Shown here: positions 8,744 through 23,535 of the stretch, piece by piece
Position numbering within the stretch: position 1 is the first letter of the stretch
Layout: every line of letters starts with the position of its first letter
Assembly (NCBI RefSeq): GCF_000189295.2
Contig: NC_016803.1
Location: 1,530,001 to 1,562,000 of the forward strand
Source: Pseudodesulfovibrio mercurii
GTDB lineage: Bacteria > Desulfobacterota > Desulfovibrionia > Desulfovibrionales > Desulfovibrionaceae
Length of the DNA: 32,000 nucleotides
Reading direction: 5' to 3'
Translations under genes and position numbers: made by a program
Notes under the pieces: model-generated
The model's database searches: none
Told to the model about the DNA's origin: nothing
Seen by the model: only the letters and a program-made list of their open reading frames with translations

Positions 8744-9886
8744 GTGGACATATTCAAGTTCGCTATTCCCGAAGTGATTTTCGGCCGGGGAAGCCTGCAA
8801 TATGCCAGCATCTGCGCCAAACGCCTGGGGGCCTCCAAGATCTTCGTGGTCTCGGACCCAGGCGTGGAGGAGGCGGGCTGGGTGGAGGCTCTGCTGGACA
8901 TCCTGCGCCAGGAAAATCTCGATTTCGTCTATTTCAACGACGTGGTGCCCAACCCGCGCGATTTCCAGGTCCACAACGGCGCGGAGCTCTACCGCCGGGA
9001 AGAGGCGGACGTGGTCATGGCCCTGGGCGGCGGCAGCCCCATGGACGCGGCCAAGGGCATCGCCCTGATCGTCAGCAACGGGGGCGTCATCGCCGACTAC
9101 GAGGGGGCCAACATGGTCTCCCGACCCCTGCCCCCCATGGTCTTCATCCCCACCACCATGGGCAGCGAATCGAACATTTCGCAGTTCACGGTGGTCACGG
9201 ACGTGGAGCGGCGGGTCAAGATGACCGTCATCAGCCGGACCCTGGTGCCGAACATCTCCATCACCGACCCCCTGCTCCTCGAGACCCTGAACCGGGACCA
9301 GATCATCCCGCCGCTGTTCGACTCCCTGGCCCACGCCGTGGAGTCCTACGTCTCGCCCATCGCCAACCCATTCACCGAGGCGTGGAGCCTCAAGGGGCTG
9401 GACCTGCTCATGCGGCACATCCGACCAGCCCTGGAACACCGCAGGCTGGAGGACCTCGAACAGCTGGCCATCGCGGGCACCTCGTCGGGCATGGCCTTCA
9501 CCAACGCCAGCGTGGGGCTCGGCCACGCCCTGGCCCACGCCCTGGGCGGCATGCACGACGTGGTCCACGGCACGGCCCACTCCCTGCTCCTGCCCAGCGT
9601 CATGCGCTACAACCTGCCGGTCTGCGAGGCCAAGATGGCCAAGATCGGCGAGGTCATCACCGGTAAGCGGCTCAAGACCGACGAGGCCACGGCCCTGGCC
9701 GGCATCGAGGCCCTGGAGCAATTGCGAGGCGAGATCGGCATCCCCGGCCGCCTGCGCGAGATTCTGCCGGACCGGACCATGCTCCCTCAGGCGAGCCACA
9801 ACGCGGTCAAGGACATCTGCCTACTGACCAACCCCCGGCCGGCGGACTGGAAGGACATCCTGAACATCTACTACGAGATGTGGTGA
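8744..9886 (+). CDS. Iron-containing (group III) alcohol dehydrogenase
   Basis: ORF 8696..9886. Motifs: GGGSPMDAAKG and the metal-site His cluster GLGHALAHALGGMHDVVHG. GTG 8744 is preferred (AAAGGA 7 nt upstream) over TTG 8696, which has no SD and overlaps the candidate promoter. Confidence 0.85.
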   Translation: MDIFKFAIPEVIFGRGSLQYASICAKRLGASKIFVVSDPGVEEAGWVEALLDILRQENLDFVYFNDVVPNPRDFQVHNGAELYRREEADVVMALGGGSPMDAAKGIALIVSNGGVIADYEGANMVSRPLPPMVFIPTTMGSESNISQFTVVTDVERRVKMTVISRTLVPNISITDPLLLETLNRDQIIPPLFDSLAHAVESYVSPIANPFTEAWSLKGLDLLMRHIRPALEHRRLEDLEQLAIAGTSSGMAFTNASVGLGHALAHALGGMHDVVHGTAHSLLLPSVMRYNLPVCEAKMAKIGEVITGKRLKTDEATALAGIEALEQLRGEIGIPGRLREILPDRTMLPQASHNAVKDICLLTNPRPADWKDILNIYYEMW

Positions 9887-9887
9887 C

Positions 9888-11120
9888 ATGACCCAGGGAA
9901 ACGGCGGCGACACCGGCGGCAATGCCCGGCTCGAAGACATCATCGGCATCGAGTCCATCAAGCTCGGGTTCTTCAAGGAAGTCCAGAAGACCATCAACGA
10001 GCTCAAGGCCTCGAACATCGAACTCGAGCAGAAGCGGCGCGACGTCCAGGACATCCTCAACGGCATCCCGGACGTGGTCGCCGTAGTCTCTCCGGACTAC
10101 CGCGTGCTCTCGGTCAACAGCGCCTTTTCCGAGACCTACGGCAAGCGCGACCCCCTGGGGCTGCCCTGCTACAAGGTCTTCAAGAACTCGAAGCGGCCGT
10201 GCTCGCCCTGCCCCCTGGTCATGGCCAGGGAGGAGGGCCGCAAGGTCTGCCGCCAACTGCAGATCATGAACGTGGACGGCGAGAACCGGCAGATCGAGTG
10301 CTCGGCCGCGCTCATGCCCGGCACCGGGGACTCGCCGGGCAAGGTCCTGCTCCTGCACCGCGACGTGACCGTGGAGAAGCAGTACCAGGCCAAGTATTTC
10401 CAGGCCGAACGCATGGCCACCGTGGGCGTGCTGGCCGAAGGCGTGGCCCACGAGATCAACAACCCCCTGACCTCCATCCGGGGGTTCGCCGAGGCCCTGT
10501 ACGGCCACCTGGACCGGCTGGGCGTCTGCCTCAAGGACGGCGAGCCGTGCACGGACCTGCTCGAAACCTTCGAGGAGTACCTGGACATAGTGCTCAAGGA
10601 GTGCAACCGCTGCTCCGAGATCGTCCACAACCTGCTCAGCTTCGGCCACCGCGACGTGCGCGCCATGTCCATCGTCAACATCAACAACATCATCCTCAAC
10701 TGCCTGAAGCTGCTCCACCCCAGGCTGTCCATCCTGCCGTCCGGGATCATCAAGCTCGCCCTGTCCGAGGAGGAGCCCTGCGTCATGGGCCACCCCGGCG
10801 AACTGATGCAGGTGGCCCTGAACCTGATCCTCAACGCCCTGTACGAGGTGCGCGACATCGGGACCATCGACATCTCCACGCGGGTGAAGGGGAGGATGGT
10901 TCTGCTGCGGGTCTCGGACACGGGCGGCGGCTTCGCGCCCGAAGACGTGGACAAGCTCTTCGAGCCGTTCTTCACCACCAAACCGGCGGGCCAGGGGATC
11001 GGCATCGGCCTGTCCACCTGCTACAACATCATCATGAAGCACGGCGGCGAGATCACCGCCTCGAGCGAACCCGGCGAGGGCGCGGTCTTCGAGGTCATAT
11101 TGCCCCTGCTTGAGGAATGA
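9888..11120 (+). CDS. Cytoplasmic PAS-domain sensor histidine kinase, 410 aa
   Basis: PAS-like ILNGIPDVVAVVSPDYRVLSVNSAF. H-box EGVAHEINNPL. ATPase boxes DTGGGF and GIGIGLS. No TM segment. The ATG lies 1 nt after the ADH stop. Confidence 0.85.
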   Translation: MTQGNGGDTGGNARLEDIIGIESIKLGFFKEVQKTINELKASNIELEQKRRDVQDILNGIPDVVAVVSPDYRVLSVNSAFSETYGKRDPLGLPCYKVFKNSKRPCSPCPLVMAREEGRKVCRQLQIMNVDGENRQIECSAALMPGTGDSPGKVLLLHRDVTVEKQYQAKYFQAERMATVGVLAEGVAHEINNPLTSIRGFAEALYGHLDRLGVCLKDGEPCTDLLETFEEYLDIVLKECNRCSEIVHNLLSFGHRDVRAMSIVNINNIILNCLKLLHPRLSILPSGIIKLALSEEEPCVMGHPGELMQVALNLILNALYEVRDIGTIDISTRVKGRMVLLRVSDTGGGFAPEDVDKLFEPFFTTKPAGQGIGIGLSTCYNIIMKHGGEITASSEPGEGAVFEVILPLLEE

Positions 11121-11124
11121 GCCC

Positions 11125-12471
11125 ATGGCGAACACGGAGATCAACCGCGTCCTGGTGGTGGACGACGAGCCCTTCATCCGCAAGCTGGCCGAACGCGAGC
11201 TGGCCCTGCCCGGCCGGGAGGTGACCACCGCGGCCACGGCGGCCCAGGCCCAGCGCCTGGTCAAGCGGGGCGACTTCGACGTCATCCTGCTGGACGTCCG
11301 GCTGCCCGACGGCAACGGCAACCGGCTGCTGGAGCATTTCCGCGAGACCCTGCCCGACGTGGAGGTCATCATGATCACCGGCTACTCCGAGGTGGACAGC
11401 GCGGTGGAGGCCATGAAGGCCGGGGCCTACGACTACGTGACCAAGCCCTTTTCCCTGGACCGCATGAACCTGCTCATCGACCGGGCCTACCAGCGCCGGG
11501 TCATGCAGCGGGAGCTGCGCACCCTGCGCCGGGACAAGGGGGGCAAGCCTCGGCAGTGGTTCATCGGGACCTCGGCGCCCATGCGCGAGATCGCCTTCCT
11601 GGTGGACAAGGTCGCGCCCACGGACGCGCCCGTGCTCATCACCGGCGAGAGCGGCGTGGGCAAGAACGTCATCGTCAACGTTCTGCACGCCCGCAGCTCG
11701 CGGGCGAGCATGCCACTCATCGTCAAAAACTGCGGCGCCTTCAACAAGGAGCTGCTGCGCAGCGAGCTGTTCGGCTACTGCAAGGGCGCGTTCACCGGGG
11801 CCGAGACCACCCAGGAGGGCGTCCTGGCCCAGGCGGACAAGGGCACCCTGTTCTTCGACGAGGTGGGCGAGCTGCCCCTGGAGGTCCAGGCCATGCTCCT
11901 GCGCGTGTTCGAGTCCCAGCGGTACCGCCGCGTGGGCGACCGCGAGGAGCGCTCGGTGGACGTGCGCTTCCTGTTCGCCACCAACCGCGACCTGGCCGCG
12001 GAGGTGGAGGCTGGCCGCTTCCACGAGGCCCTGTACCACCGCCTCAACGTCTTCCGCATCGACATCCCGCCCCTGCGGGAACGCAAGGAGGACATCCCCA
12101 TGCTCGTGGGGCACTTCCTGGAGAACCTCTACCCGGACCGGCCGCCCTACCGGCTGTCCAAGCGGGCCGGGGAGAGCATGATCGCCTACGACTGGCCGGG
12201 CAACGTCCGCGAACTGCGCAACGTCATCGAGCGGGGCATCATCCTGGCCGAGAACGACCTGATCACCACCAAGTGCCTGCCCTCGGACATAGCCCGCTCC
12301 CTGGACGAGGGCGAGTGCTGCGCCCCGCTGCCCACCCTGGACCAGCAGGAGAAGCGCTACATCCTCCGGGTCATGGAGCACGTGGGCCAGAACCGCACCC
12401 AGGCGGCACGCATCCTGGGCATCGGACGCAAGACCCTGTACCGCAAGCTGCGCGCCTTCGAGGAGAGCTAG
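11125..12471 (+). CDS. sigma54-dependent response regulator (NtrC family), 448 aa
   Basis: ORF 11110..12471. ATG 11125 has GAGGA 8 nt upstream. Acceptor context FDVILLDVRLPDGNG; Walker A GESGVGKN; GAFTGA present; HTH AARILGIGRKTLYRKL. Confidence 0.9.
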   Translation: MANTEINRVLVVDDEPFIRKLAERELALPGREVTTAATAAQAQRLVKRGDFDVILLDVRLPDGNGNRLLEHFRETLPDVEVIMITGYSEVDSAVEAMKAGAYDYVTKPFSLDRMNLLIDRAYQRRVMQRELRTLRRDKGGKPRQWFIGTSAPMREIAFLVDKVAPTDAPVLITGESGVGKNVIVNVLHARSSRASMPLIVKNCGAFNKELLRSELFGYCKGAFTGAETTQEGVLAQADKGTLFFDEVGELPLEVQAMLLRVFESQRYRRVGDREERSVDVRFLFATNRDLAAEVEAGRFHEALYHRLNVFRIDIPPLRERKEDIPMLVGHFLENLYPDRPPYRLSKRAGESMIAYDWPGNVRELRNVIERGIILAENDLITTKCLPSDIARSLDEGECCAPLPTLDQQEKRYILRVMEHVGQNRTQAARILGIGRKTLYRKLRAFEES

Positions 12472-12498
12472 GCCCCGGCGCGCAACCGCGCCCGTCGG

Positions 12499-12529
12499 TT
12501 CTCCGGGAGCGTCATCCGCTCCCGGAGAA
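12499..12529. terminator. 13-bp perfect hairpin between convergent genes (candidate bidirectional terminator)
   Basis: ttctccgggagcg (12499-12511), tcatc loop, cgctcccggagaa (12517-12529). No U-tract. Confidence 0.4.
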
Positions 12530-12555
12530 GGGTTCCCTGCGCGCGGGGCGCGGCG

Positions 12556-12576
12556 CCGGGCTCCACGGGAGCCCGG
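12556..12576. terminator. Second 9-bp hairpin in the convergent intergenic region
   Basis: ccgggctcc acg ggagcccgg. Confidence 0.3.
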
Positions 12577-12599
12577 GCCGGACCGCCGCCTCGGGACGG

Positions 12600-13898
12600 T
12601 CACAACCCCACGTTCTTGAGGTCTTCGCCGAGGTATTCCCGCTCGTTTTCCCCCAGGATGCCGAGGGAGAGGCAGATGAGCGTCCACAGGTGGACCACGG
12701 GGAACCCGGCCTCGTAATGTTCGCTCAGATCATGAATCTGAGAATGGCAGTTGTGGCACGGGGCGATGCAGTAGTCGGCCTTGGTCCTGAGGATCTGGTT
12801 CAGCTTGATCCTCCCGTAGGCCCGCCGCTCCTCGGCGAACCCGGATTGCAGGAACCCGCCCCCGCCGCCGCAACAATAGTTGTTCGACTTGTTCGGCCAC
12901 ATGTCGATGAAGTTCTCCTCGCCGACCACGGACCTGACCACGAAGCGCAGGTCCTCGGCCACGGGGTCGTGCAGGGACTTGCGGACCAGCTGGCAGGGGT
13001 CCTGGACCGTGAAGGTCACGCCCAGGTCCTTGTTCCAGTCCGAATTGACCGGCAGTTTCCCCTCGCGAATCCACCTGGCGTACAGGCGGATGATGGACTC
13101 CATCTCGAAGCTGTGTTCGACGTTGAACCGTTGCAGTCCGGCCCGGACCGCGTAGAATTCGTGTCCTCACTCCGTATTGAGCCAGACCTTGCACCCGAGG
13201 TCCTCGACCGCCGCGGCCTTGTTGCGGACCACCTTCTCCCAGGCCTCGTCGTCGGCCAGGAACATGCAGTAGTTTTCGGCGGCCCACCCCTTGGTGGAGT
13301 AGGTCCAGTCCGCGCCCACCAGGTTGAGGATCTTCCACAGCGGGACCATCTCGTCCGGCTCGGTGACCGGCTCGCGCGAGTTCTGGTTCAGGAAGTAGTA
13401 GGCCCCCTTGCGGTCGATGGAGACCTCGAGGTTCTCCATGCCCGGCTGGGTCTCGCGGACCTCTTCGAGCACGTCCTCGACCACGAACTTGAAGTCCTCG
13501 CTGGACGCGCCCATGGCGCTGTTGCCCGGCGTGGACAGGGCCTGCTCGCAGGAGCCGAGGATGCCCTTGGGGCGCTCCTCCCTGGGCCAGGACTGGCGGC
13601 AGTGGTAGACCAGCTGCGGGATGTCCACCTCCATGGGGCAGGCGTGGACGCAGCGCCGGCACATGGTGCACAGCCAGACCCACGGCGTGGACCGGATCTC
13701 CTCCTCCTGGCCGTAGAGGGCCAGGCGCAGGAATTTGCGAGGGTCCATGCCGTGCATGCCCGTGGCCGGGCAGCCCGAGGAACAGGCCCCGCAGGCCAGG
13801 CACATGTTCAGGTTGCCGCCCTCGGGCAGCAGTTCCTTGACCTTGTCCACCAATGCCGAGTGTTTCGGTTCGATCAGCAGTTGTGCCGCTTCGCCCAT
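12600..13898 (-). CDS. HdrD/DsrK-family Fe-S oxidoreductase (2x[4Fe-4S] ferredoxin domain + CCG domain), probable selenoprotein with in-frame UGA at 13167-13169
   Basis: ORFs 13167..13898 and 12600..13103 are in the same frame (offset 567 nt). Read-through gives ...KVWLNTE-[TGA]-GHEFYAVRAGLQRFNVEHSFEMESIIRLY... The N-terminal piece has CLACGACSSGCP and CTMCRRCVHACP. The C-terminal piece has the CCG motif DPC-X39-CCGGG...CHNC. AAAGGAG SD precedes ATG 13898. Confidence 0.75.
13133..13151 (-). promoter_or_regulatory. Candidate bacterial SECIS hairpin downstream of the in-frame UGA
   Basis: The mRNA reads UGA-GGACACGAAUUCUAC-GCGGUCCGGGCCGGACUGC. This forms a 7-8 bp stem (one G-U pair) with a G-rich apical loop. 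The stem starts 15 nt after UGA and the loop about 23 nt after it. Confidence 0.5.
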
Positions 13899-13952
13899 GG
13901 TTCACTCCTTTCGCGCATGGACGCCGCCGGACGTTCCCCGCGGCGCGCGTCG

Positions 13953-13980
13953 TTCCGGGGGCGACCGTCCGCCCCCGGAA
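13953..13980 (-). other. 11-bp GC hairpin between the tandem-USP gene and the HdrD-like gene
   Basis: ttccgggggcg (13953-13963), 6-nt loop, cgcccccggaa (13970-13980). No U-tract, so it may be an intra-operon processing, stability or attenuation element. Confidence 0.35.
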
Positions 13981-14001
13981 CCGGTTTCGTTTCAGCTCGG
14001 A

Positions 14002-14907
14002 TCAGGCCAGGGCCTCGGCCTCGACCACCTGGCCGGTCTGGTCGTACATCAGGCCGCAGCGCAGGTCGAAGTGCCGGTTGACGCTCATGGTCGGACACGG
14101 CGCGTTCAGGGCCACCTGGGTCACGGTGGAGCCCAGGAAGGCCTTTTCGGGATCGCGTTCCTTGGAGTGGTGGGCCATGATCAGCAGGTCCGCGTCGCCC
14201 TGGCGGGCCGTGCGCAGGATCTCCATGGCCGGTTCACCCATCTCCGCCCGGAAGGCGCAGTCGGCGATGCCGTCGAGGCGCTTGCCGTAGGCGTCCTCCA
14301 GCCGGGCCGTGCATTCGCTGCGGCCCGGTCCACCGGGCTCGGCCACGTGCATGACCACCAGGTTGGCCTTGTACTGACGGGCCATCTGCCCGCCGTAGGA
14401 CACGGCGCATTCGGCCTGGTCCGAGAAGTCCGTGGCGACCACGATGTTCGAGAACAGCGGCTCGCGGCAGGATATCTCCTTGTGAACGATCATGACCGGA
14501 CAGCGGGCCCGCTGGCTGACGCGCTCGAGCGTGCTGCCGGCCATGCCCCACATCTTGGCCCGCTTCTCCTCGTATTCCTTGGTGTGCGGCCCCATGACGA
14601 TGAGGTCCGAGTTCTTGGCCCGGGCCAGGCGCAGCAGTTCGTTGTGCGGGATGCCCGGCACGACCACGATCTGCGCGCTGGGGAGTTCCTTCAGGTATTC
14701 GTCGTACATCTCCCGGATCTTGTCCCCGAGCTGCTCGGTCTCGCCCGAGGGCGCGAGGTGTTCTATGGAGCCCCAGCCCTGTTCCATCCCGGCCACGTGG
14801 GTCAGGTAGAGCTTGGACTCGAACTTGACGGCGAACTCCACCGCCGCCTTGACCGCACAGGCATCGATGCCGGTGGGCGTGACGCCCACGATGATGTCCT
14901 TAAACAT
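14002..14907 (-). CDS. Tandem-domain universal stress protein (2x UspA), 301 aa
   Basis: Two USP repeats: MFKDIIVGVTPTG...LIVMGPH...GSTLERVSQRARCPVMIV and NIVVATDFS...LLIMAHHS...LGSTVTQVALNAPCPTMSV. An SD-like AAGGAAAGGGGG precedes the ATG, which lies 24 nt after the hdrB stop. Confidence 0.85.
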   Translation of the reverse strand: MFKDIIVGVTPTGIDACAVKAAVEFAVKFESKLYLTHVAGMEQGWGSIEHLAPSGETEQLGDKIREMYDEYLKELPSAQIVVVPGIPHNELLRLARAKNSDLIVMGPHTKEYEEKRAKMWGMAGSTLERVSQRARCPVMIVHKEISCREPLFSNIVVATDFSDQAECAVSYGGQMARQYKANLVVMHVAEPGGPGRSECTARLEDAYGKRLDGIADCAFRAEMGEPAMEILRTARQGDADLLIMAHHSKERDPEKAFLGSTVTQVALNAPCPTMSVNRHFDLRCGLMYDQTGQVVEAEALA

Positions 14908-14931
14908 GACTAGCCCCCTTTCCTTTCTGGT

Positions 14932-15861
14932 TTATCCGTTCAAACCCGCCGTTTCTTCCTCGTTTTCCTCCGCCATGGGCGCGGGCTCGGCCCACGCCCT
15001 GGTTGCAATGTCCCGTCTGACCTTCGGCGTCATGGTCAGGTTGTCCGCCAGCCGCATGTCCCGCTCGGTCAGCCCCATGGCCAGCCCCATGAGCTGGGTC
15101 AGGTAGAGCACGGGCACGGGCGTGCCGCCCGCCTTGCGCACCCTGGCCTGGTAGGCCTCCAGGTTCATCTGGCAGAGCGGGCAGACCGTGACGATGGCGT
15201 CGGCCCCGGCCGCGTCGTTCAGGATCTCGGCCACGGAGCGGATGGCCACCTCGGGGTGGCCGACCATGAGCGAGGCCCCGCAGCAGCGGTTGGCCATGTC
15301 CCAGTGGTGGACTTCGCCGCCCATGGCCTCGATGAACGGCTCCATGGAGACCGGCCTGCCAGGCTCGTCGAAGACCGGGTAGGGGCGCAGGATCTGGCAG
15401 CCGTAGTAGGGCGCGACCCGCATGCCCTGAAGCCCGTCGGTGATCTTCTGCTCCACGATCTTGGCGCCCACGTCGTTCTTGAGCACGTCGAGCAGGTGGC
15501 GGACCTTCACGTCGCCCCGGTAGTGCAGGCCGGAGGCGGCCAGGACCTCGTTGACCCGGCCGTGCAGATGCCGGTCGCCGACCACCTCGCGGTTGACCTT
15601 GAACAGGTTGAGGTAGCAGGCCGAACACGGGGCGAGGACGTCCAGGCCGCCCAGTTCCTGCTCCGCGATGGCCAGGTTGCGCGCGGGCAGGACGTGGTTC
15701 ATGAGCTTGCTGACCGGTTCGGCCGCGCTGGCCCCGCAGCAGGTCCAGTCCGGAATCTCGACCAGCTCGCAGCCGAGCCGCTCCAGGACCAGCCTCGTCG
15801 AGACGTCGAACTCGCGGGCGCTCTCGGTCAGCGAACATCCGGGATAATAGGCGTACTTCAT
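14932..15861 (-). CDS. hdrB: Heterodisulfide reductase subunit B (two CCG domains), 309 aa
   Basis: Real part of ORF 14932..16488, starting at MKYAYYPGCSL (ATG 15861). Motifs: DWTCCGAS...CSACYLNL and YYGCQIL...NRCCGAS...CPLCQMNL. An ATGA overlap joins it to hdrC. Confidence 0.9.
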   Translation of the reverse strand: MKYAYYPGCSLTESAREFDVSTRLVLERLGCELVEIPDWTCCGASAAEPVSKLMNHVLPARNLAIAEQELGGLDVLAPCSACYLNLFKVNREVVGDRHLHGRVNEVLAASGLHYRGDVKVRHLLDVLKNDVGAKIVEQKITDGLQGMRVAPYYGCQILRPYPVFDEPGRPVSMEPFIEAMGGEVHHWDMANRCCGASLMVGHPEVAIRSVAEILNDAAGADAIVTVCPLCQMNLEAYQARVRKAGGTPVPVLYLTQLMGLAMGLTERDMRLADNLTMTPKVRRDIATRAWAEPAPMAEENEEETAGLNG

Positions 15862-16427
15862 GACAGTCCCTCCATCTCGCGGGCCTTGGCGAACAGGGGC
15901 CGGAGCACGTCGCCCCGCCCCTTGCCCGGCATGTGCACCTTGCCCTTGCCGAGCATGCGCACGCCCAGCGGCAGGTAGGAGAGCGGCAGCATGGGGTCGC
16001 GGGCCTTGAGGAAGTACCGCTGCATCATGCTCGTCTCCTGGACCCGGCCGTGGACCTCCACGTCGTCCATGAAGGCCCGGTAGAAGGCCAGGTTCCTGCG
16101 CGCGTGGGGGCCGTCCGCGATCCCGGCCAGCCGCTTCAGGGCGGCCATGGCCGAGGTCAGCTTGAGCCCGCGCGGGCAGCGCAGCGTGCACATGTAGCAG
16201 GCCGAGCACATCCAGAAGGTCTTGCTTTCCAGTATCTTGTCGAGCATGCCGAACTGGATCATCCGCCACATGGCCCTCGGGGTGATGTCCATGGCGTGCC
16301 AGTTGGGACAGGAGGCCGTGCAGGTGCCGCACTGCATGCACGCCCCCACGGTTTCCCTCAACTCCTTGAGCACCAGTTGGTCGGCCTCCGAGGCCGGGCT
16401 CCACGTTTCCCTGACAGCTCCGTTCAT
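15858..16427 (-). CDS. hdrC: Heterodisulfide reductase subunit C (2x[4Fe-4S]), 189 aa
   Basis: CMQCGTCTASCP and CSACYMCTLRCP motifs. Size and position upstream of hdrB fit HdrC. Confidence 0.85.
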   Translation of the reverse strand: MNGAVRETWSPASEADQLVLKELRETVGACMQCGTCTASCPNWHAMDITPRAMWRMIQFGMLDKILESKTFWMCSACYMCTLRCPRGLKLTSAMAALKRLAGIADGPHARRNLAFYRAFMDDVEVHGRVQETSMMQRYFLKARDPMLPLSYLPLGVRMLGKGKVHMPGKGRGDVLRPLFAKAREMEGLS

Positions 16428-16462
16428 GATCCCTCACTCCTTGGCAATGTTGTTGCCCGGCC

Positions 16463-19400
16463 CTAGGCCGGTTCCTCCAGGGCCGCATCGATGACGGACA
16501 GCATCGGCCCGTCGTGGAACCCCTTGAGCACGGTGGCGCTGTTGGGGCAGACCGCGGCGCAGGCGCCGCACCCCTGGCAGAGAATCTCGTCCACGATGAT
16601 CTTCTCCTCGGTGGTGTCCACGGCCCGGGCCCCGTAGGGACAAGCGCTGACGCAGGCCTGGCACAGGGAGCACAGGGAGTGGCGCACCGTGGCCACCACG
16701 GTCTCGCGGGGGATCTTCTCGGCGTTGAGGATGCGCAGGGCCCGCTGGGCCGCCGCCTTGGCCGTGGCCACGGTCTCGCGCATGCGCCGGGGACCCAGGG
16801 CGATGCCGCACATGTAGATGCCCTGCTTGAGGAAATCCACGGGCCGCCACTTGAAGTCCGCCTCGCGGTAGAAGCCGTGCTCGTCCACCTCCACGTCGAA
16901 GACCTCGAGCAGGTCCTCCACGTCGTTGGGCTCGATGCCGCTGGCCAGGGACAGGATGTCCGGACGCAGCTCCACCTGGCCCCGCAGGATCGGGTCGTAC
17001 CCCCGGACCACGGGCCTGCCCTCCTCGAAGGTCACCTGGGGCACGGTCAGGTGGTCGTAGCGGATGAAGATGGCCCCCGCCTTGCGCGCCCTGGTGTAGT
17101 AGGTCTCCAGGAACCCCTGGGTCATGATGTCGCGGTAGAAGACGTAGATGGGCAGGTCCGGGTTGCGCTCCTTGAGGGCGAGCACGTTCTTGAGCATCTC
17201 CGGGCAGCAGACCTTGCTGCAATAGGTCCGGTCCTCGCCGTCGTTGCGCCAGCACTGGATCATGACCACCGAGGAGAGGGCCTTGGCGTCGAGCCGGCCG
17301 GTGGCCAGCTGCTCCTCCAGGGCCAGGTGGGTCATGACCGACTTGTGCACACACAGGCCGGACTCGTAGACCTTGGCCTCGTGCCCGCCCGTGGCCAGGA
17401 TGGTCACCGCGTGCTCCAGGGGGAAGACCCCCCGCGGGCTGGCGATGGCCGAGCGGAAGTGGCCCGCGCTGCCCCTTGAGAGGACCACGCGCGAATCCTT
17501 GAAGACCTTGATGTTCGGGTGCTTCTCCACCTGGGCGATGAGCTCCTCCATGTAGGCGTGCGGGTCGGTGCCGTCCAGCTGGGTATGCAGCCGCATGGCC
17601 GTGCCGCCGAGCTCCTCCTCGGCCTCCACCAGGCAGACCCCGTAGCCCTGGTCCGCGATGGACATGGCGGCGACCATGCCCGCCAGGCCGCCGCCGACCA
17701 CCAGGGCCGAGCGGACCACGTCCACGGTCACGGCCGGGCCGGACGGGTCCGCGCCCTGCAACCGGGCCACGGCCGTGGCCAGGGAGGCGTATATCTCGCG
17801 CTCCACGCGGCCGTCGCCGTCCCCGCCCACCGTGGCGGTGTAGATGTCCACCACGTCCATGAGCGCGGGGTTCAGGCCGATGGTCCGGCCCAGCTCCTTG
17901 AGCCTGGGGATGTAGGCGTAGGGCATGCACGCCCCGATGAGAATACGGTTGGGCTTGTACTCCAGGGCCGCCGCCTCGATGTCCTTCCAGCCCTGCGGGG
18001 TGCAGGCGCTGCCCACGCGCATGACCTTGCAGACCGAATGGACCCGCTGCATGCGCTCGGCCAGGTCGTCCAGGTCCACGGCCTGCTCCAGGGTCGGGCA
18101 GGAGGTGCAGACCGTGACCAGGGTCCGCGCCGGGTCCCTGGACACGTCCGGGTAGGACGGTTCGGGCTCGCCCTCGATGCCCGCCAGGACGTCGTAGGCC
18201 TTGATGATCCGCGAGGCGGCCTGGGCCGCGGCCCCGGCGTGGATGACCGACTCGGAGATGTCGCGGGGTTCGCCGAAGGCCCCGGCCGCGAACACGCCCA
18301 CGCGACTGGTCCGCTCGGGCCGGTACGGCAGGGTGTCCACGAAGCCCCACTCGTTCAGGTCCACGCCCATGGTCAGGGCGAACTTGTCCGTGCCCCTGGG
18401 CGGCCGCGCCCCGGCGGCCAGGACGACCATGTCGAATTCCTCGGCAATCAGCTCGCCCGCGTCGTTCAGATATTCGAGCTTCAGCCCCTTGCCGTCGTCG
18501 GCGGCCAGGACCGTGTGCGGACGGCTGCGCACGAAGCGCACGCCGTGCTTCTTCTCGGCATCGACCCGGTAGCGCTGGTACTCCTTGCCCGAGGTGCGCA
18601 TGTCCATGTAGAAGATGGTCGCATCCAGGCCCTCGCCCGCGACCTTCTTGGCCAGCAGGGCCTCCTTGATGGAGAACATGCAGCAGATGCCGGAACAGAA
18701 GTCCGCATGCTTGTGCACGTCGCGCGAGCCCACGCATTGCAGCCAGGCGATGCGTCTGACCGGCTCGCCGTCGGATCGTTGCAGCCTGCCGCCCGTGGGC
18801 CCGGTGCCCGAGAGCAGCCGCTCGAACTCCACGGCGGTGAGCACGCCCGGATGGGCGTAGGCCCAGACGTCCGCCCCGCCCTCGGGGTCCATGTCCGGGG
18901 TGTAGCAGTCGAAGCCCCCGGCCAGGACCACGGCCCCGACCTCGAGCTTGACCGTGGAGTCCGAGAGGATGCGCACGTAGAGCTTGTCGAGCCAGGGCAC
19001 GAAGCGCTTCCGCCTCAGCGGCTTGACCAGGTATTCGCGCGCGCCCTGCATGACCAGGTCCGCGGCCGCCTCCTCGCTCCCCGGATCGGCCAGGACGACC
19101 ACGGGCAGGTCGGGCCTGAGCTCCCTGGCGCGGGTCAGGACCCGTTCCGCATCCATGTCGTTCAGCCCCATGCCCAGCAGGAGCAGCCCCACGGGCTCCT
19201 CCGAGGCGAGCCGGTCCACGGCCTCGCGTCCGCTCTGCGCGAAGTGCAGCGGGAAGTTCTGCTCCTTGAGCTCCGCCTCCATCATCGCCTTCACGTCCGG
19301 GTCGCGGTCGGCCACCAGGATGTGGAAGTCCCTGCGATCCTCGAACTTGAAGTCGATGGCCCCGGTGGGGCAGGCCTCGTGGCACTTCCAGCAGCGGATG

Positions 19401-19891
19401 CAGTTGTCCAGGTCCAGCACGTAGTGGTTGGGGATGGCGTAGGGCACGGGCAGGTGCACGGCCGTGCGCTCGGTCAGCCCGGCGTTGAACTCGCTGGGCA
19501 CGCGCACCGGGCAGACCTCGGCGCACCGGCCGCAGCTGATGCACTTGGCCGGGTCGATGAGCGTGGACTTGCGCTTGAGGGAGAGCAGGAACTTGCCCGG
19601 TTCGCCCTCCAGGGTCTCCACCTCGGTGGACAGCATGAGGTCGATGTTGTCGTGGAACAGCCCCTTGCGCAGACAGTACTGGCTGGAGGAGTCGCGCGAC
19701 ATCAGCGGGAGCATGCGGCACATGCCGCAGTGGTCCGTGGGGAACTGGTGGTCCAGCTGGGCGAGTATCCCGCCGTGGCTGGGCCTGCGGTCGATGAGGG
19801 CCACCTTGTGCCCGGTGACGGCCAGGTCCAGGGCCGCGCGGATGCCGCCGATGCCCGCTCCGACCACCAATGCGCCGTATTGCTTTCTCAT
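16463..19891 (-). CDS. Giant double HdrA-like flavo-iron-sulfur protein (QmoA-like half with inserted receiver-like domain + complete HdrA-like half), 1142 aa
   Basis: ORF 16463..19903. ATG 19891 is preferred because the TTG GAG GAC codons supply the GGAGGA SD. Half 1: GALVVGAGIGG, FPTDHCGMCRMLP, and an inserted ferredoxin CISCGRCAEVCP...CIRCWKCHEACP. The mid-protein segment LVTVCTSCPT...SACTPQG...LIGACMPYAY mirrors the HdrA N-domain. Half 2: SALVVGGGLAGM...CSKVCC..., ending with C-terminal CSLCQACVSACP...CQGCGACAAVCP. Confidence 0.85.
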   Translation of the reverse strand: MRKQYGALVVGAGIGGIRAALDLAVTGHKVALIDRRPSHGGILAQLDHQFPTDHCGMCRMLPLMSRDSSSQYCLRKGLFHDNIDLMLSTEVETLEGEPGKFLLSLKRKSTLIDPAKCISCGRCAEVCPVRVPSEFNAGLTERTAVHLPVPYAIPNHYVLDLDNCIRCWKCHEACPTGAIDFKFEDRRDFHILVADRDPDVKAMMEAELKEQNFPLHFAQSGREAVDRLASEEPVGLLLLGMGLNDMDAERVLTRARELRPDLPVVVLADPGSEEAAADLVMQGAREYLVKPLRRKRFVPWLDKLYVRILSDSTVKLEVGAVVLAGGFDCYTPDMDPEGGADVWAYAHPGVLTAVEFERLLSGTGPTGGRLQRSDGEPVRRIAWLQCVGSRDVHKHADFCSGICCMFSIKEALLAKKVAGEGLDATIFYMDMRTSGKEYQRYRVDAEKKHGVRFVRSRPHTVLAADDGKGLKLEYLNDAGELIAEEFDMVVLAAGARPPRGTDKFALTMGVDLNEWGFVDTLPYRPERTSRVGVFAAGAFGEPRDISESVIHAGAAAQAASRIIKAYDVLAGIEGEPEPSYPDVSRDPARTLVTVCTSCPTLEQAVDLDDLAERMQRVHSVCKVMRVGSACTPQGWKDIEAAALEYKPNRILIGACMPYAYIPRLKELGRTIGLNPALMDVVDIYTATVGGDGDGRVEREIYASLATAVARLQGADPSGPAVTVDVVRSALVVGGGLAGMVAAMSIADQGYGVCLVEAEEELGGTAMRLHTQLDGTDPHAYMEELIAQVEKHPNIKVFKDSRVVLSRGSAGHFRSAIASPRGVFPLEHAVTILATGGHEAKVYESGLCVHKSVMTHLALEEQLATGRLDAKALSSVVMIQCWRNDGEDRTYCSKVCCPEMLKNVLALKERNPDLPIYVFYRDIMTQGFLETYYTRARKAGAIFIRYDHLTVPQVTFEEGRPVVRGYDPILRGQVELRPDILSLASGIEPNDVEDLLEVFDVEVDEHGFYREADFKWRPVDFLKQGIYMCGIALGPRRMRETVATAKAAAQRALRILNAEKIPRETVVATVRHSLCSLCQACVSACPYGARAVDTTEEKIIVDEILCQGCGACAAVCPNSATVLKGFHDGPMLSVIDAALEEPA
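18968..19327 (-). other. CheY-like receiver (pseudo-receiver) domain inserted in the HdrA-like protein
   Basis: ORF-track residues ~193-312 read FHILVADRDPD...VGLLLLGMGLNDMDA...LPVVVLADPGS...GAREYLVKPL. This is a receiver-like b1/b3/b4/b5 pattern with the conserved Lys (KPL). Gly (codon 19172-19174) sits where the phospho-acceptor Asp is expected, and Ala where Thr/Ser is expected. Confidence 0.6.
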
Positions 19892-19907
19892 TTTGTCCTC
19901 CAATGAA

Positions 19908-21038
19908 TCAGGCCATGTGCGAAACCGCGTCCTGGAACTCGTCTTCCTTGAAGACCGACAGCGGCGGGGCCTCGTCCAGGCTGCGGCCCGGCACGTAGTC
20001 GAAACTCTCCTGGGTGCGCGCGGCCACGGTGCGGAACAGCTCCATGACCGGGATGTCGTTGGGGCAGGCGTTGGAACACTGGCCGCAGCCCACGCAGGCC
20101 ATGGACATGTGGGCCATGCGCGTGAGGTGGTAGAAGACCGTGTCCGTGGGCATCTTCAGCGAGCCCTTGCGCTTGGCCCAGCCCATGTACTGCCACGGCT
20201 TGTGCTCGAACACGTCGGTGTTGAAGACGCACTCCTTGCAGTAGCAGACCGGGCAGGCCACCCGGCAGTTGTAGCAGTTGACGCAGGAGGCCAGGTACTC
20301 GGCCAGGTCGGTCAGGGTGCCGGTGACCGCCCGGGTGCGCTCGAACATCTCGTCCCGGTTGGCGGTGCGCACCTCGATCATGGCCTTGAGCGCCTCGTCG
20401 CGGCCGCCGCCCGCCTCGGCCTCGGGCAGCCCCAGGCTGAGGAGCAGGGACTCGCCGCGCGGGCTGGAGGCCGTGACCGGAATGTGCCCGGACAGGTCCG
20501 CCCCGGCCAGGCCGAGGACGATGTCCGCGTTCTCCGGGGCCGGATGCTCGCAGGCCCGGCAGGCCGAGGCGATGTCCGCCCCGCCGTTGCCCACCTGCCT
20601 GTGGAAGTCCATGGTGGCCTCGAAGGGATCGCGGTCGCCCAGAAACGCCTTGTACCCGGTGTTGTCGAAGGCCCCCATGCAGTCCAGGCCGACCAGGATG
20701 ATGTCGTCGATGGAACCCTGGTTGAGCTTGACCAGCTCCACGAAGGCGCGGATTTCGCACGGCCGCAGGACCGCGGCGATGCGCTCGCCCGACTGCCCTC
20801 TGGTGAGCCGGGCCAGGAGCTTGGCGCTGTTCATGGGAAATGCCGGGGCCAGCGGGTCCGCTCCGGAGAGCTGCTCCGGGTCCGTGACCAGGGTCGGCAT
20901 GGGGATGCCCTTGCCGAACAGGTGCATGGGCACCAGCACCCCGCCGATGCTCTCGTTCTCCATCAGGCCGCGCAGGAACCCCTGCACCGCCGCAATCGGG
21001 TTGCCCCCGTCGATCTGGATCTTCGCCGTGGTTGCCAT
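19908..21038 (-). CDS. FrhB/FdhB-like (F420 hydrogenase/dehydrogenase beta-family) Fe-S flavoprotein, 376 aa
   Basis: N-terminal pattern IGGVLVPMH...AAVLRPCEIRAFVEL...ILVGLDCMG. C-terminal Cys clusters CVNCYNCRVACPVCYC and CVGCGQCSNACP. The family call is by eye. Confidence 0.6.
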   Translation of the reverse strand: MATTAKIQIDGGNPIAAVQGFLRGLMENESIGGVLVPMHLFGKGIPMPTLVTDPEQLSGADPLAPAFPMNSAKLLARLTRGQSGERIAAVLRPCEIRAFVELVKLNQGSIDDIILVGLDCMGAFDNTGYKAFLGDRDPFEATMDFHRQVGNGGADIASACRACEHPAPENADIVLGLAGADLSGHIPVTASSPRGESLLLSLGLPEAEAGGGRDEALKAMIEVRTANRDEMFERTRAVTGTLTDLAEYLASCVNCYNCRVACPVCYCKECVFNTDVFEHKPWQYMGWAKRKGSLKMPTDTVFYHLTRMAHMSMACVGCGQCSNACPNDIPVMELFRTVAARTQESFDYVPGRSLDEAPPLSVFKEDEFQDAVSHMA

Positions 21039-21055: not shown

Positions 21056-21481
21056 CTAGATCACGGCCATGGAACGCGCTTCCATGGGGCCGAGTTCTCT
21101 GATTTCGTTGATGAAGTTATTGACCGTCGCGGCAAACTCGTTGCCTTCGCTCGCCCCCACCCAGGTCAGCTTGACCCGCTCCTTTTCGATGCCGAACTGG
21201 GGCAGAATCTCGTTCAGGAGCTTGACCCGCCGCCGGGCCTTGTAGTTGCCGTTGATGTAGTGGCAGTCACCGGGATGGCAGCCCGAGACCAGGACCCCGT
21301 CCGCCCCGGAGAGCAGGGACTTGACGATGTACTTGGGGTCCACCATGCCGGTGCACATCATGCGCACCATGCGCAGGTTGGGCTGCTGGATCATGCGCGA
21401 GGTCCCGGCCAGGTCCGCCGCCGTGAAGGTGCACCAGTTGCAGACAAAGGCCAGGATGGTCGGTTCGAACTCGTTACTCAT
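21056..21481 (-). CDS. mvhD: MvhD/FlxD-like (methyl-viologen-reducing hydrogenase delta subunit family) protein, 141 aa
   Basis: ILAFVCNWCTFTAADLAG...RMMCTG...VLVSGCHPGDCHY is the characteristic MvhD Cys pattern. It overlaps the hdrA end by 8 nt. Confidence 0.85.
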   Translation of the reverse strand: MSNEFEPTILAFVCNWCTFTAADLAGTSRMIQQPNLRMVRMMCTGMVDPKYIVKSLLSGADGVLVSGCHPGDCHYINGNYKARRRVKLLNEILPQFGIEKERVKLTWVGASEGNEFAATVNNFINEIRELGPMEARSMAVI

Positions 21482-23510
21482 GACGTGCCTCCTCGACGAC
21501 CCGCGTAACCGGGATGTCCACCGGATGCGCCCCGCCCGCCTCGGGCGGCAGCCAGCCGGGGACCATCCCTAGCAGTCCGTCTATTTCGTTGAATATCTGC
21601 GTCTCGTTGAAGTGCTTGATCTGGGCCGCGCCGCTCGGGCAGTACCCGGCGCAGGAGCCGCATCCCTTGCACATGGCCTCGTTGATCACGGCCACGTTGC
21701 GCCGCTCGTCGAACTCGATGGCCGAGTAGGCGCACAGTCCCACGCAGACCCGGCAGCCCACGCAGATGTCCGGGTTGATCCAGGACGTGGTCGGGGAGAT
21801 GGAGACCGTGCCCTTGGCCGCCAGGGCCAGGGCCTGGGCCGCGCCGCCCGAGGCGTGGGAGACCGCGTCCGGGATGTCCTTGGGTCCCTGGCAGGTGCCG
21901 GCCAGGAAGACCCCGTCCGTGGCAGTGGAGACCGGCCCGAGCTTGGGGTGCTCTTCCAGGAAGAAGCCGTCCGAGCCCTGGGCGATGCCGAAGACGCGGG
22001 CCACCTCGGTGGCGTCGGGCCGGGGCTCCATGGCCGTGCACAGGATGACCATGTCCACGGGCAGGCGCACGTTGACCCCGAGCAGGGTGTCCTCGCCCAC
22101 CACCACGAGCCTGCCGTCCTCCTCCACCACCTCGGCGGGCCGCCCCCGGATGAAGGTCACGCCCTCGTCCTGGACCCGCCGGTAGAACTCCTCGTACCCC
22201 TTCCCGAAGCAACGCATGTCGATGTAGAAATTGTAGACCTTGGTGTCGTGGCCGACCTTGTCCTTGATCAGATGGTCGTACTTCAGCGCGTACATGCAGC
22301 AGGTCCGCGAACAGTACTCATGGTAGTTCTTGTCGCGGGAGCCCACGCAGTGGATGATGGCCACGGACTCGGGCTTCCTGCCGTTCTTCATGACGATCTT
22401 GCCCTCGGTGGGGCCGACCGCGTTGTTCAGCCGCTCGAACTGGAGGGCGGTGTAGACCTCGTCGTACCGGCCGAAGCCGTATTCGCGCATGGGCGTCGGG
22501 TCCATGGTGTCGTAGCCCGTGGCCAGGACGATGGAACCCACGTGGAAGACCTCGCGGGACTCCTTCATGTCGTAGTCGATGGCCCCGGTGGGACAAATTT
22601 TCTGACACACGCCGCACTTGCCCTTGGTGATCATCTTGCAGGCGTCGCCGTCGATGACCGGGGTGTTGGGCACGGCCTGGGGCGAGTTGCGGTAGATGGC
22701 CTTGCGGAAACCCAACCCCTCGTTGAACTCGCTGATGGCCTTGGTCGGGCACTTCTCCAGGCAGGCCCCGCAGCCGGTGCAGACGTCTTCCTTCACGTAG
22801 CGCGGCTTGTGCCGGACCGTGACCGTGTAGTTGCCCACGAACCCGGTGACCTCCTCCACCTCGGACCAGGTCATCAGGTTGATGTTCGGCTCCTGGCTGA
22901 CCGCGACCATCTTGGGCGTTGAGATACAGGCCGCGCAGTCGAGCGTGGGGAAGGTCTTGTCGAACTGGGCCATATGCCCGCCGATGGACGGGCTCTTCTC
23001 CACCAGGTGGACCTTGTGCCCGGACTTGGCGATGTCGAGCGCGGCCTGGATGCCAGCGATGCCCGCGCCCACGACCATGACGTCGGGCAGGACCCCGACC
23101 TCGCGCGAGTAGAGCTTCTGGTGGTCGGCCACCCGCTCCACCGCCGCCTCGACGATGTGCCGGGCCTTGGCCGTGGCCTCATCGGGATCGGCCGTGGTCC
23201 AGGAGCAGTGCTCGCGGATGCAGCAGTGCTGCATGAGGTACGGATTGAGCCCGGCCCGGGCGCACGCCTTCTGGAAGGTCTTCTCGTGCAGCCGGGGCGA
23301 ACAGGAGGCGACCACCACGCGATCCAGGCCGTACTGCCGGATGTCCCGGATGATCATCTCCTGGCCGGGGTCCGAGCACATGAACTGGTAGTCGCGGGAG
23401 ACGACCACGTCCTTGAGACCGCCCGCAAACTCGGCCACCCCCTCGCAGTCCACCTTGCCCGCGATGTTGGACCCGCAATGACAGACATAGACACCGATCT
23501 TTCTGGACAT
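21474..23510 (-). CDS. hdrA: Heterodisulfide reductase subunit A, 678 aa
   Basis: ORF 21474..23528. ATG 23510 has GGAGGA 6 nt upstream. N-domain IGVYVCHCGSNIAG; FAD fold VMVVGAGIAGIQAALD; FPTLDCAACI; inserted ferredoxin CTGCGACLEKCP...CGVCQKICP; C-terminal CVGCRVCVGLC...CKGCGSCAGYCP. Confidence 0.9.
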   Translation of the reverse strand: MSRKIGVYVCHCGSNIAGKVDCEGVAEFAGGLKDVVVSRDYQFMCSDPGQEMIIRDIRQYGLDRVVVASCSPRLHEKTFQKACARAGLNPYLMQHCCIREHCSWTTADPDEATAKARHIVEAAVERVADHQKLYSREVGVLPDVMVVGAGIAGIQAALDIAKSGHKVHLVEKSPSIGGHMAQFDKTFPTLDCAACISTPKMVAVSQEPNINLMTWSEVEEVTGFVGNYTVTVRHKPRYVKEDVCTGCGACLEKCPTKAISEFNEGLGFRKAIYRNSPQAVPNTPVIDGDACKMITKGKCGVCQKICPTGAIDYDMKESREVFHVGSIVLATGYDTMDPTPMREYGFGRYDEVYTALQFERLNNAVGPTEGKIVMKNGRKPESVAIIHCVGSRDKNYHEYCSRTCCMYALKYDHLIKDKVGHDTKVYNFYIDMRCFGKGYEEFYRRVQDEGVTFIRGRPAEVVEEDGRLVVVGEDTLLGVNVRLPVDMVILCTAMEPRPDATEVARVFGIAQGSDGFFLEEHPKLGPVSTATDGVFLAGTCQGPKDIPDAVSHASGGAAQALALAAKGTVSISPTTSWINPDICVGCRVCVGLCAYSAIEFDERRNVAVINEAMCKGCGSCAGYCPSGAAQIKHFNETQIFNEIDGLLGMVPGWLPPEAGGAHPVDIPVTRVVEEARHE

Positions 23511-23535
23511 GTCCCATCCTCCATGCAATCCGTGG

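Follow-up and report, generated by a model that had tools for sequence, protein, structure and literature searches.

Comparative analysis of a 32,000-nucleotide stretch of the Pseudodesulfovibrio mercurii genome (referred to below as the window) indicates that positions 13898..12600 of the minus strand are almost certainly a single gene, in which the UGA at codon 244 is decoded as selenocysteine (Sec). The encoded protein is a soluble, cytoplasmic Fe-S thiol/disulfide-type oxidoreductase in which an HdrC-like and an HdrB-like module are fused ('HdrD-type' or 'GlpC'). This Cys-to-Sec gene belongs to the catalogued 'Fe-S oxidoreductase (GlpC)'/HdrD-like selenoprotein family (also called 'Fe-S oxidoreductase-like protein'), which was published by Zhang 2006 and has listed members in D. 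vulgaris, Desulfotalea psychrophila and Syntrophobacter fumaroxidans. A 2026 review table gives the Sec motif of the family as 'UGH', and the reference model of the GlpC-like selenoproteins is PANTHER PTHR43551, with WP_174406253.1 as reference sequence. The exact ORF fragments of the window cluster at 90% identity or above with a D. ferrophilus entry named 'oxidoreductase, selenocysteine-containing'. Because these selenoproteins entered the catalogues about two decades ago, the find, though correct, is ordinary, and no new kind of system is revealed. In annotation the locus calls for a single selenoprotein of 432 residues, with codon 244 marked as a translation exception.

The in-frame UGA and its Cys-containing counterparts

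Translation of the gene (12600..13898, minus strand, 432 codons) from the ATG at 13898-13896 yielded 243 codons ending in ...KVWLNTE, the Sec codon TGA at 13167..13169, and then 188 open codons up to the true stop, a TGA at 12602-12600. The joined product has 432 residues with Sec at 244. The preliminary description had taken a 243-aa and a 167-aa ORF to be pieces of one protein; the two do share a frame, with a stop-to-stop distance of 567 nt, and 21 codons (GHEFYAVRAGLQRFNVEHSFE) lie between the in-frame TGA and the 167-aa ORF. GC3 was 0.97 upstream of the TGA and 0.87 downstream.

A search for homologues found 2608 sequences, and the best 120, all full length and sharing 61-72% identity, were aligned. 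All 120 carry a Cys in the UGA column, placed within an invariant E-C-G-H (E243, C244, G245 and H246), so the ECGH motif given in the preliminary description is real. The window protein reads T-E-U-G-H at this point (residues 242-246; 13161..13175, minus strand), which sequence, homologues and literature identify as the Sec version of a T/GECGH motif. Each Cys homologue is one undivided chain, about 430 aa long.

The identical codon is TGA, and the frame stays open after it, in 80 of the 80 closest loci at species level (67-87% identity over the N-terminal part) and in one paralogue. These TGA-bearing loci span several families of Desulfobacterota. A simple neighbour-joining tree contained several pure Sec and several pure Cys clades rather than one split, and we make no claim of a single origin for the Sec form. 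Cys and Sec paralogues stand in tandem in the related loci L004, L081, L082 and L083; such pairs suggest a selenium-responsive isoenzyme pair in some species. The locus of P. mercurii ND132 carries the Sec form only, suggesting that its Hdr-like module is strictly selenium-dependent.

A SECIS hairpin and the decoding of codon 244

Folding, covariation and the criteria of the published model together identify a bacterial SECIS element within the coding sequence (13125..13160, minus strand). Its lower helix pairs 13160-13156 with 13129-13125, and an upper helix of 8 bp, which begins 15 nt past the UGA, pairs 13151-13144 with 13140-13133. Three nucleotides, GGC (13143-13141), form the apical loop, which lies 23 nt from the UGA, and folding gives an MFE of -13.9 kcal/mol. 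For a bacterial SECIS the published model specifies a loop of 3-9 nt, an upper stem of 4-16 bp, a G in the first two loop positions, a UGA-to-loop distance of 16-37 nt and an MFE <= -7.5 kcal/mol, and the hairpin agrees with it in loop size, stem length, loop G, spacing and MFE.

The hairpin occurs in one register in all 81 TGA sequences, with loop G27 invariant, 94.8% of the upper-helix cells paired and compensatory changes at five of the eight pairs. None of 500 shuffles reached the observed covariation, and sliding the partners made the pairing collapse. The hairpin was not formed in four Cys paralogues. Folding of the single sequence, which is 65% G+C, gave z-scores that were not significant (-1.3 for 86 nt; -0.8 for 45 nt, where 48 of 200 shuffles folded as well as the SECIS hairpin), so the evidence for the element is comparative and we rely on covariation. 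An Rfam scan of the whole window returned no family at threshold, and hence no curated model applies to the SECIS here. In the proposed mechanism the hairpin would recruit SelB carrying Sec-tRNA(Sec), and the ribosome would therefore continue into the CCG domain.

Among bacterial stop codons UGA is the leakiest, and its read-through can be stimulated by downstream structures. The codon might for this reason be passed by near-cognate Trp or Cys insertion or by low-level leaky termination, the hairpin merely acting as a stimulator. We judge such read-through very improbable. The hairpin conforms to what is modelled for SelB-type SECIS elements, in its spacing and the invariant G of its loop among other features, and homologues invariably carry Cys where the window has the recoded codon, which is the hallmark of Cys/Sec pairs. 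In addition, the family is catalogued as a selenoprotein family and the host is a documented Sec user: P. mercurii (D. desulfuricans ND132) stands in a published table of Sec-utilizing organisms, where 6 known selenoproteins are given for it. The window itself contains no selA, selB, selC or selD, and no tRNA genes.

The 21 codons after the UGA bear on a second alternative, in which the TGA terminates an HdrC-like ferredoxin gene and a restart at ATG 13103 yields a distinct CCG-domain subunit. Canonical Hdr has separate HdrC and HdrB polypeptides, as does the window, and several pipelines annotate two genes (JGI/IMG, and GenBank for P. indicus), the split public records naming the halves as an 'HdrC/ferredoxin' gene and a 'cysteine-rich protein' gene. 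The expectation that automated annotation would break up the gene was thus borne out in several records, whereas NCBI gives a full-length product of 431 aa in at least two relatives, L081 and L083. A restart is nonetheless extremely unlikely. Across 79 distinct sequences the 21 codons never contain a stop, and entropy is highest at the third position (0.93 bits vs 0.48 at position 1 and 0.39 at position 2). This wobble argues that the stretch is kept as protein, in line with its earlier description as open and protein-like. An ATG where the 167-aa ORF of the window starts is present in only 3 of the 79, most of the others having ATC or ATT; in 59 of them the stretch after the UGA lacks any in-frame start codon. 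A ribosome-binding site before ATG 13103 is neither required nor conserved. The break would moreover split the first HdrB-like half-domain midway rather than fall at the boundary between the HdrC-like and HdrB-like modules, and the Cys homologues are undivided.

Other Sec candidates were sought by scanning the window for TGA-joined high-GC3 frames. The one other serious candidate, at 27475, was rejected, since its TGA interrupts a GtrB-type glycosyltransferase exactly where a solved homologue has Trp; trivial in-frame TGAs therefore do occur in this genome. That codon 244 is likewise a nonsense mutation or sequencing error in a pseudogene or truncated gene is scarcely credible and, as far as sequence conservation can decide, effectively refuted: the TGA recurs at the same codon in all 80 related species from several Desulfobacterota families, the downstream frame is intact under coding-type constraint, the aligned residue is an invariant Cys and not Trp, and a conserved SECIS follows.

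Domain organization and the proposed role of Sec244

The N-terminal part contains an HdrC-like domain (residues 30-92; 13623..13811, minus strand) with two CxxCxxCxxxCP motifs and matches to Pfam Fer4_8/9/17, for which two [4Fe-4S] clusters are predicted. It matched HdrC chains in the PDB at 5e-12 to 1e-9, and at 1e-16 in a profile search. The C-terminal part contains an intact CCG domain, C-X39-CC-X36-C-X2-C (residues 297-388; 12735..13010, minus strand; Pfam PF02754, 2e-10), whose five Cys are all invariant and which is matched by the second CCG domain of HdrB (5odc_B) at 5e-7 in a profile search. The preliminary description had placed a 4Fe-4S dicluster ferredoxin-type domain upstream of the TGA and a CCG domain downstream, with a C-X39-CCG...CHNC motif, and Pfam and the sequence agree on each point.

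To the region between these domains (about residues 165-290; 13029..13406, minus strand) we assign a degenerate first HdrB-like half-domain, on the basis of a structure model, a fold match and the literature, where the same assignment has been made for DsrK. Pfam finds no CCG domain in this half, and C211 and U244 are the only CCG-motif cysteine positions that survive in it. Because only the second CCG motif is intact, a single non-cubane [4Fe-4S] cluster is predicted from the sequence, with the intact CCG domain as its site.

The structure examined was an AlphaFold model of a Cys homologue, P0003, which is 69% identical to the window protein. It forms one compact fold (pLDDT 85.9, pTM 0.87, about 95 across the junction). 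The strand-helix pattern of residues 168-267 recurs at 296-403, with C244 and C381 each directly after a strand and directly before a helix. Foldseek aligned the model with whole HdrB chains over about 300 columns, at TM 0.60-0.66 (normalised to the target). Alignment of the two half-domains by hhalign placed NYC-M with NYCCG and TECGH with TPCHNC, in the register that had been expected but at an E value of 0.19 that is not significant, and comparison of residues 120-290 with the first CCG domain of HdrB by phmmer and a PDB profile search gave coverage of the second CCG domain only.

The earlier proposal of a Sec in place of a conserved Cys close to the non-cubane cluster matches the literature on the T/GECGH Cys. 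In DsrK, HmcF and TmcB, the cytoplasmic catalytic subunits of membrane redox complexes of sulfate reducers, this Cys is described as a strictly conserved remnant of a lost second CCG motif that is probably catalytic and probably essential for disulfide reduction. By analogy, Sec244 would be a redox-active residue acting together with the single non-cubane cluster. The secondary-structure repeat of the model, the fold match and the literature on Cys homologues, on which both this role and the closeness to the cluster rest, make a catalytic function of Sec244 somewhat probable. Electrons would reach the Sec enzyme from the HdrA/MvhD-type flavoprotein module encoded upstream, via the two cubane clusters. 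A selenosulfide would form as intermediate while Sec244 attacks or resolves its substrate, which could be a disulfide, a trisulfide or a persulfide; plausible candidates are a DsrC-like protein and other thiol carriers.

Sec usually takes the place of catalytic cysteines, which lends modest independent support to a redox-active T/GECGH residue in DsrK-type enzymes. The Sec stands at the very cysteine for which a catalytic partnership with the one non-cubane [4Fe-4S] cluster of those enzymes has recently been proposed. The literature searched held no paper linking the 'UGH' selenoprotein family to the T/GECGH motif. We regard it as an evenly balanced question whether the family bears on that proposal: if Sec244 is the nucleophile that forms a selenosulfide with the substrate, the family would constitute a natural Cys-to-Sec 'experiment' backing that mechanism, and would offer a 77Se spectroscopic handle on it. 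The Hdr-like electron-transfer cluster of ND132, a mercury-methylating sulfate reducer, includes a selenium-dependent active site, probably of thiol/disulfide type.

Gene neighbourhood and comparison with known systems

As the preliminary description had stated, the selenoprotein gene is the last of the hdr cluster. The gene order is hdrA-mvhD-frhB-like-hdrA(REC)-hdrC-hdrB-usp-gene. On the minus strand, and as identified by Pfam and NCBIfam, the cluster begins with hdrA (23528..21474), an mvhD/FlpD-like gene (21481..21056), a gene for an FrhB/FdhB-like Fe-S protein (21038..19908) and the gene of an HdrA paralogue into which a response-regulator receiver domain is inserted (19903..16463). It continues on the same strand with an hdrC-like gene of 189 aa (16427..15858; Pfam, product identical to EGB14597.1), an hdrB-like gene with two CCG domains (15864..14932; Pfam, NCBIfam CoB_CoM_SS_B at 1e-49) and usp, a tandem-domain universal stress protein gene (14002..14907; Pfam Usp at 2e-36, product identical to P. 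mercurii EGB14595.1). The hdrA, mvhD, hdrCB and hdrA paralogue genes are adjacent here and recurrent in related loci. The full order from hdrA to the selenoprotein gene is kept in one of these, L001, and L081 and L083 likewise have hdrA(REC)-hdrC-hdrB-usp ahead of their Sec/Cys genes. The usp gene, which lies directly upstream of the selenoprotein gene, also stands ahead of the Sec/Cys gene in L001, L004, L065, L081 and L083.

Between usp and the selenoprotein gene lie 94 nt that contain a G+C-rich hairpin of 12 bp (13952..13981), without a U tract on the sense strand, so that usp and a strong hairpin separate hdrB from the selenoprotein gene. Unrelated but analogous hairpins occupy the equivalent place in L001, L081 and L065; the element may be a partial terminator or affect mRNA stability. 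A search for the sigma-54 consensus gave 10 matches against 14 expected by chance, none of them ahead of the selenoprotein gene, and a sigma-70 scan gave no match in 12300-16600. Of the window ORFs examined, none was identified as a gene for a membrane cytochrome b partner.

The best structural match of the P0003 model is M. smegmatis EtfD (PDB 9ojn; Foldseek E 2.5e-10, TM 0.67, 455 columns), whose sequence match covers residues 50-350. EtfD, an 'iron-sulfur-binding reductase' by description, has a chain of 1042 residues, shares 16% identity and is not a selenoprotein.

With HdrD of methanogen HdrDE and with HdrB plus HdrC of HdrABC, the window protein shares the HdrC-like and HdrB-like modules, here in fused form. 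In HdrD and HdrB both CCG motifs are complete and the non-cubane clusters number two, whereas the window protein has one complete motif, together with C211 and U244, and Pfam detects one CCG domain in it. With DsrK, HmcF and TmcB it has in common two cubane clusters, a single CCG motif and the conserved T/GECGH position. One CCG domain combined with T-E-U-G-H places it within the definition of that type, with Sec for Cys. These families also provide the best NCBIfam matches (HmcF 4e-46, TmcB 1.5e-43, DsrK 2e-35), at scores of 157.6 and 149 bits against the HmcF and TmcB equivalog cut-offs of 750 and 735 bits, and of 122.2 bits against the 400-bit equivalog cut-off of DsrK (NF045796). The term 'HdrD/DsrK-type' used in the preliminary description therefore holds for the architecture only: strict membership is lost with scores far under the NCBIfam cut-offs for DsrK, HmcF and TmcB, and with the lack of HdrD's second CCG motif. 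The window protein differs further from DsrK, HmcF and TmcB in having Sec where they have Cys, and in that the neighbours identified in the window are soluble HdrA/MvhD-type proteins.

A closer parallel comes from Desulfobacterium autotrophicum HRM2, a sulfate reducer with many hdrA/mvhD loci, in which HdrD4 is reported to contain Sec. Compared by description, HdrD4 is like the window protein a soluble 'HdrD' homologous to HdrC plus HdrB, and the two are likely orthologous.

Where the selenoprotein literature writes 'GlpC', the name serves as a COG-style label and not as a functional assignment; against the GlpC cut-offs of TIGR03379 and NF008369 (about 280 bits) the window protein scored 31 and 30 bits, over the ferredoxin part only. 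The published five-gene operon of the GlpC-type selenoprotein family includes the hydrogenase genes frhG/frhA, in place of which the window cluster has hdrC, hdrB, usp and the receiver-domain HdrA paralogue. The window protein and this family share the dicluster ferredoxin plus CCG architecture, the U-G-H Sec motif, a deltaproteobacterial distribution, the existence of Cys-containing homologues and recurrent linkage to hdrA and frhD/mvhD genes, and between the proteins themselves we find no essential difference.

Reading frame across the UGA

The minus strand of 13898..12600 translates as 243 codons (MGEAAQ...KVWLNTE), a TGA at 13167-13169 and 188 further open codons (GHEFYAVRAGLQRFNVEHSFE-MESII...NVGL) up to a stop at 12600-12602. 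In the ORF table this appears as two minus-strand pieces in the same frame, of 243 aa (13167..13898) and 167 aa (12600..13103). The preliminary description had read them as one gene, and its observation of a single frame across the TGA was confirmed: translation yielded the 21 intervening codons, a joined product of 432 residues and, in the downstream piece, the C-X39-CCG...CHNC motif, and the offset of 567 nt is the distance between the two stop codons. Third-position G+C is 0.97 directly before the TGA and 0.87 directly after it.

With the joined protein as query 2608 homologues were found, the best 120 of which were nearly all single chains of ∼410-450 aa with 61-72% identity. In a MAFFT alignment all of these 120 carried Cys at the UGA column, within an invariant E-C-G-H, the motif that the preliminary description gave for Cys-containing homologues. 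A scan for related loci, covering one genome per species and using the N-terminal fragment only, returned 80 loci (67-87% identity to this fragment) from Desulfovibrionaceae, Desulfobacterales, Desulfohalobiaceae, Desulfonatronum and others. Every one had TGA at the identical codon, followed by a frame reading GHE(L/F/M)(F/Y)AVR.GL.KF.... In the 21 codons past the UGA, entropy was 0.93 bits at third positions versus 0.48 and 0.39 at first and second positions, a two to three times greater variation, and none of 79 distinct sequences had an in-frame stop. This third-position wobble, the lack of stops and the scarcity of starts indicate that the stretch is translated. A stop-and-restart model for the 167-aa ORF was rejected, as it fits neither this codon pattern nor the starts: ATG occurs at the ORF's start site in only 3/79 distinct sequences, and 59/79 have no in-frame start codon within the stretch. 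The interpretation of one gene with a Sec-decoded UGA is supported.

SECIS hairpin and Sec decoding in the host

At a fixed register 3′ of the UGA lies a hairpin with upper helix GCGGUCCG/CGGACUGC (13151-13133) and loop GGC, flanked by a 5-bp lower helix. Pairing holds for 94.8% of upper-helix cells over the 79 distinct sequences, and 5 of the 8 pairs show changes on both sides, a covariation reached by none of 500 shuffles. Sliding the partners by 1-3 columns reduced hairpin pairing from 90.7% to 10-49%. The loop opens with an invariant G. For bacterial SECIS elements, the published model specifies a loop of 3-9 nt, a stem of 4-16 bp, G within loop positions 1-2, a UGA-to-loop distance of 16-37 nt and an MFE ≤ −7.5 kcal/mol; the window hairpin lies within all of these limits (3-nt loop, 8-bp stem, G at position 1, spacing 23 nt, −13.9 kcal/mol). 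Because its folding energy alone is unremarkable for G+C-rich sequence (z = −0.8) and Rfam holds no matching family, the SECIS evidence is comparative. In the control set of four Cys-containing paralogues, three of them adjoining a Sec copy, the hairpin was absent from all four MFE folds; 4-7 of the 8 pairs were in register with MFEs of −7 to −11, compared with a mean of −15.8 for the TGA forms.

Tandem Cys and Sec paralogues occur in four related loci, L004 (2751-5370), L081 (4628-7275), L082 (6001-8553+) and L083 (6001-8638), and may be selenium-responsive isoenzyme pairs; the window locus has the Sec form only. In a simple tree, Sec and Cys forms fall into several distinct clades, each purely one or the other, a hint that Sec and Cys have interconverted repeatedly. 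The L004 Cys paralogue (3459-3508) keeps 7/8 SECIS-register pairs after its TGC codon, with the hairpin outside the MFE structure, and may have kept a fossil SECIS after a change from Sec to Cys.

The usp and HdrC products are identical to EGB14595.1 and EGB14597.1 of P. mercurii, which we take to be the organism formerly named Desulfovibrio desulfuricans ND132. ND132 has been tabulated as Sec-utilizing with six known selenoproteins (2016, PMC5029168), a listing that speaks against a host devoid of Sec machinery. No tRNA gene lies anywhere in the window.

Another in-frame TGA (27475-27477) interrupts a plus-strand GtrB-type family-2 glycosyltransferase gene (26830-27771), the frame of which is otherwise intact through both C-terminal membrane helices. 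Sec is unlikely here, since the aligned residue of the solved Synechocystis GtrB (5ekp) is Trp (WNYWKL-W-NFALDG). This TGA looks like a TGG-to-TGA nonsense change, whether it reflects a sequencing error, leaky read-through or a gene that recently became a pseudogene. The truncated 215-aa product is identical to RefSeq WP_202945501.1, and a GtrII-type glucosyltransferase gene follows downstream (28262-29878).

The hdr cluster and its neighbours

As stated in the preliminary description, the selenoprotein gene (13898..12600) is positioned last in the minus-strand hdr cluster. It is preceded, in order, by hdrA (23528..21474), an mvhD/FlpD-like gene (21481..21056; 141 aa, Pfam 2e-52) overlapping the hdrA end by 8 nt and too short for the 150-aa ORF list, genes for an FrhB/FdhB-like Fe-S protein (21038..19908) and a 1146-residue HdrA paralogue (19903..16463), hdrC (16427..15858), hdrB (15864..14932) and usp (14907..14002). 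Gene order is identical in the Maridesulfovibrio locus L001, and in many other related loci the Sec gene adjoins one or two HdrA paralogues. The CNWC motif of the MvhD/FlpD-like protein carries Cys; FrhD/MvhD itself is a known selenoprotein family. A response-regulator receiver domain is inserted in the HdrA paralogue (∼residues 195-301), an arrangement kept in L001, L081 and L083; control of an HdrA-like flavoprotein by phosphorylation, if true, would be unusual.

Between usp and the selenoprotein gene lies a perfect 12-bp G+C-rich hairpin (13952-13981) with no U tract on the sense strand and a T-rich tail on the antisense (plus) strand only; unrelated hairpins occupy the equivalent position in L001, L081 and L065. 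Promoter searches found no convincing promoter for the selenoprotein gene, a cluster member by position that may be co-transcribed with the other genes. The sole exact sigma-54 consensus match in the window (TGGCAC-N5-TTGCW) is at 544-559 (minus), and window matches with ≤2 mismatches do not exceed chance in total.

Adjoining plus-strand genes within 4400-12471 encode a small ferredoxin, a tungsten-type aldehyde:ferredoxin oxidoreductase (4942-7086), a B12-binding radical SAM protein (7223-8620), an iron alcohol dehydrogenase (8696-9886), and a PAS histidine kinase and sigma-54 response regulator (9888-12471); additional sigma-54 activators are encoded at 1076-4000 and 24348-25805. From these neighbours the hdr cluster may be tied to alcohol or aldehyde metabolism, to which the flx-hdr cluster of D. 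vulgaris is linked.

Relation to Hdr and DsrK-type enzymes

Pfam assigns residues 30-92 of the joined protein to a 4Fe-4S dicluster domain and residues 297-388 to a CCG domain. Among solved Hdr complexes, the N-terminal domain aligned with HdrC chains (5e-12; 1e-16 with a family profile) and the C-terminal domain with the second CCG domain of HdrB. A Cys homologue of 69% identity, as modelled confidently by AlphaFold (pLDDT 85.9, ∼95 around residue 244; pTM 0.87), contains one strand-helix pattern twice (residues 168-267 and 296-403), with C244 and C381 each directly following a strand and directly ahead of a helix. Its top Foldseek matches were M. smegmatis EtfD (TM 0.67) and whole HdrB chains (∼300 aligned columns, TM 0.60-0.66 normalised to HdrB). 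On these domain matches, the repeat and the fold search, the joined protein is an HdrC-HdrB fusion of 'HdrD type'; in one of its HdrB half-domains, only C211 and residue 244 are left of the CCG motif. By homology, Sec244 would be the redox-active partner of the single non-cubane cluster, with electrons coming from the HdrA/MvhD module.

The selenoprotein identification is correct and, from family tables, a Sec-HdrD paper and existing annotations, already known. Zhang et al. 2006 (PMC1794560) included 'Fe-S oxidoreductase (GlpC)' among 25 selenoprotein families, listed it for D. vulgaris, Desulfotalea and Syntrophobacter and noted its linkage to hdrA and frhD; a 2026 review has the same family as 'Fe-S oxidoreductase-like protein' with Sec motif 'UGH', and the Db. 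autotrophicum genome paper describes a Sec-containing HdrD. At ≥90% identity, the window ORF fragments share clusters with a D. ferrophilus entry named 'oxidoreductase, selenocysteine-containing' and with pairs of split genes from P. indicus and JGI records, and in two relatives 431-aa NCBI gene calls run across the TGA.

NCBIfam scores for HmcF, TmcB, DsrK and GlpC were all far under the cut-offs, making the window protein a relative of these equivalogs and not a member. According to the DsrMKJOP paper (PMC10861901), DsrK, HmcF and TmcB have a single CCG motif and a strictly conserved Cys in T/GECGH, to which the window's N-T-E-U-G-H corresponds. A search of a limited literature collection found no paper uniting 'ECGH' with 'selenocysteine'; our only small addition is that the Sec of this family occupies the T/GECGH Cys position of DsrK-type enzymes.
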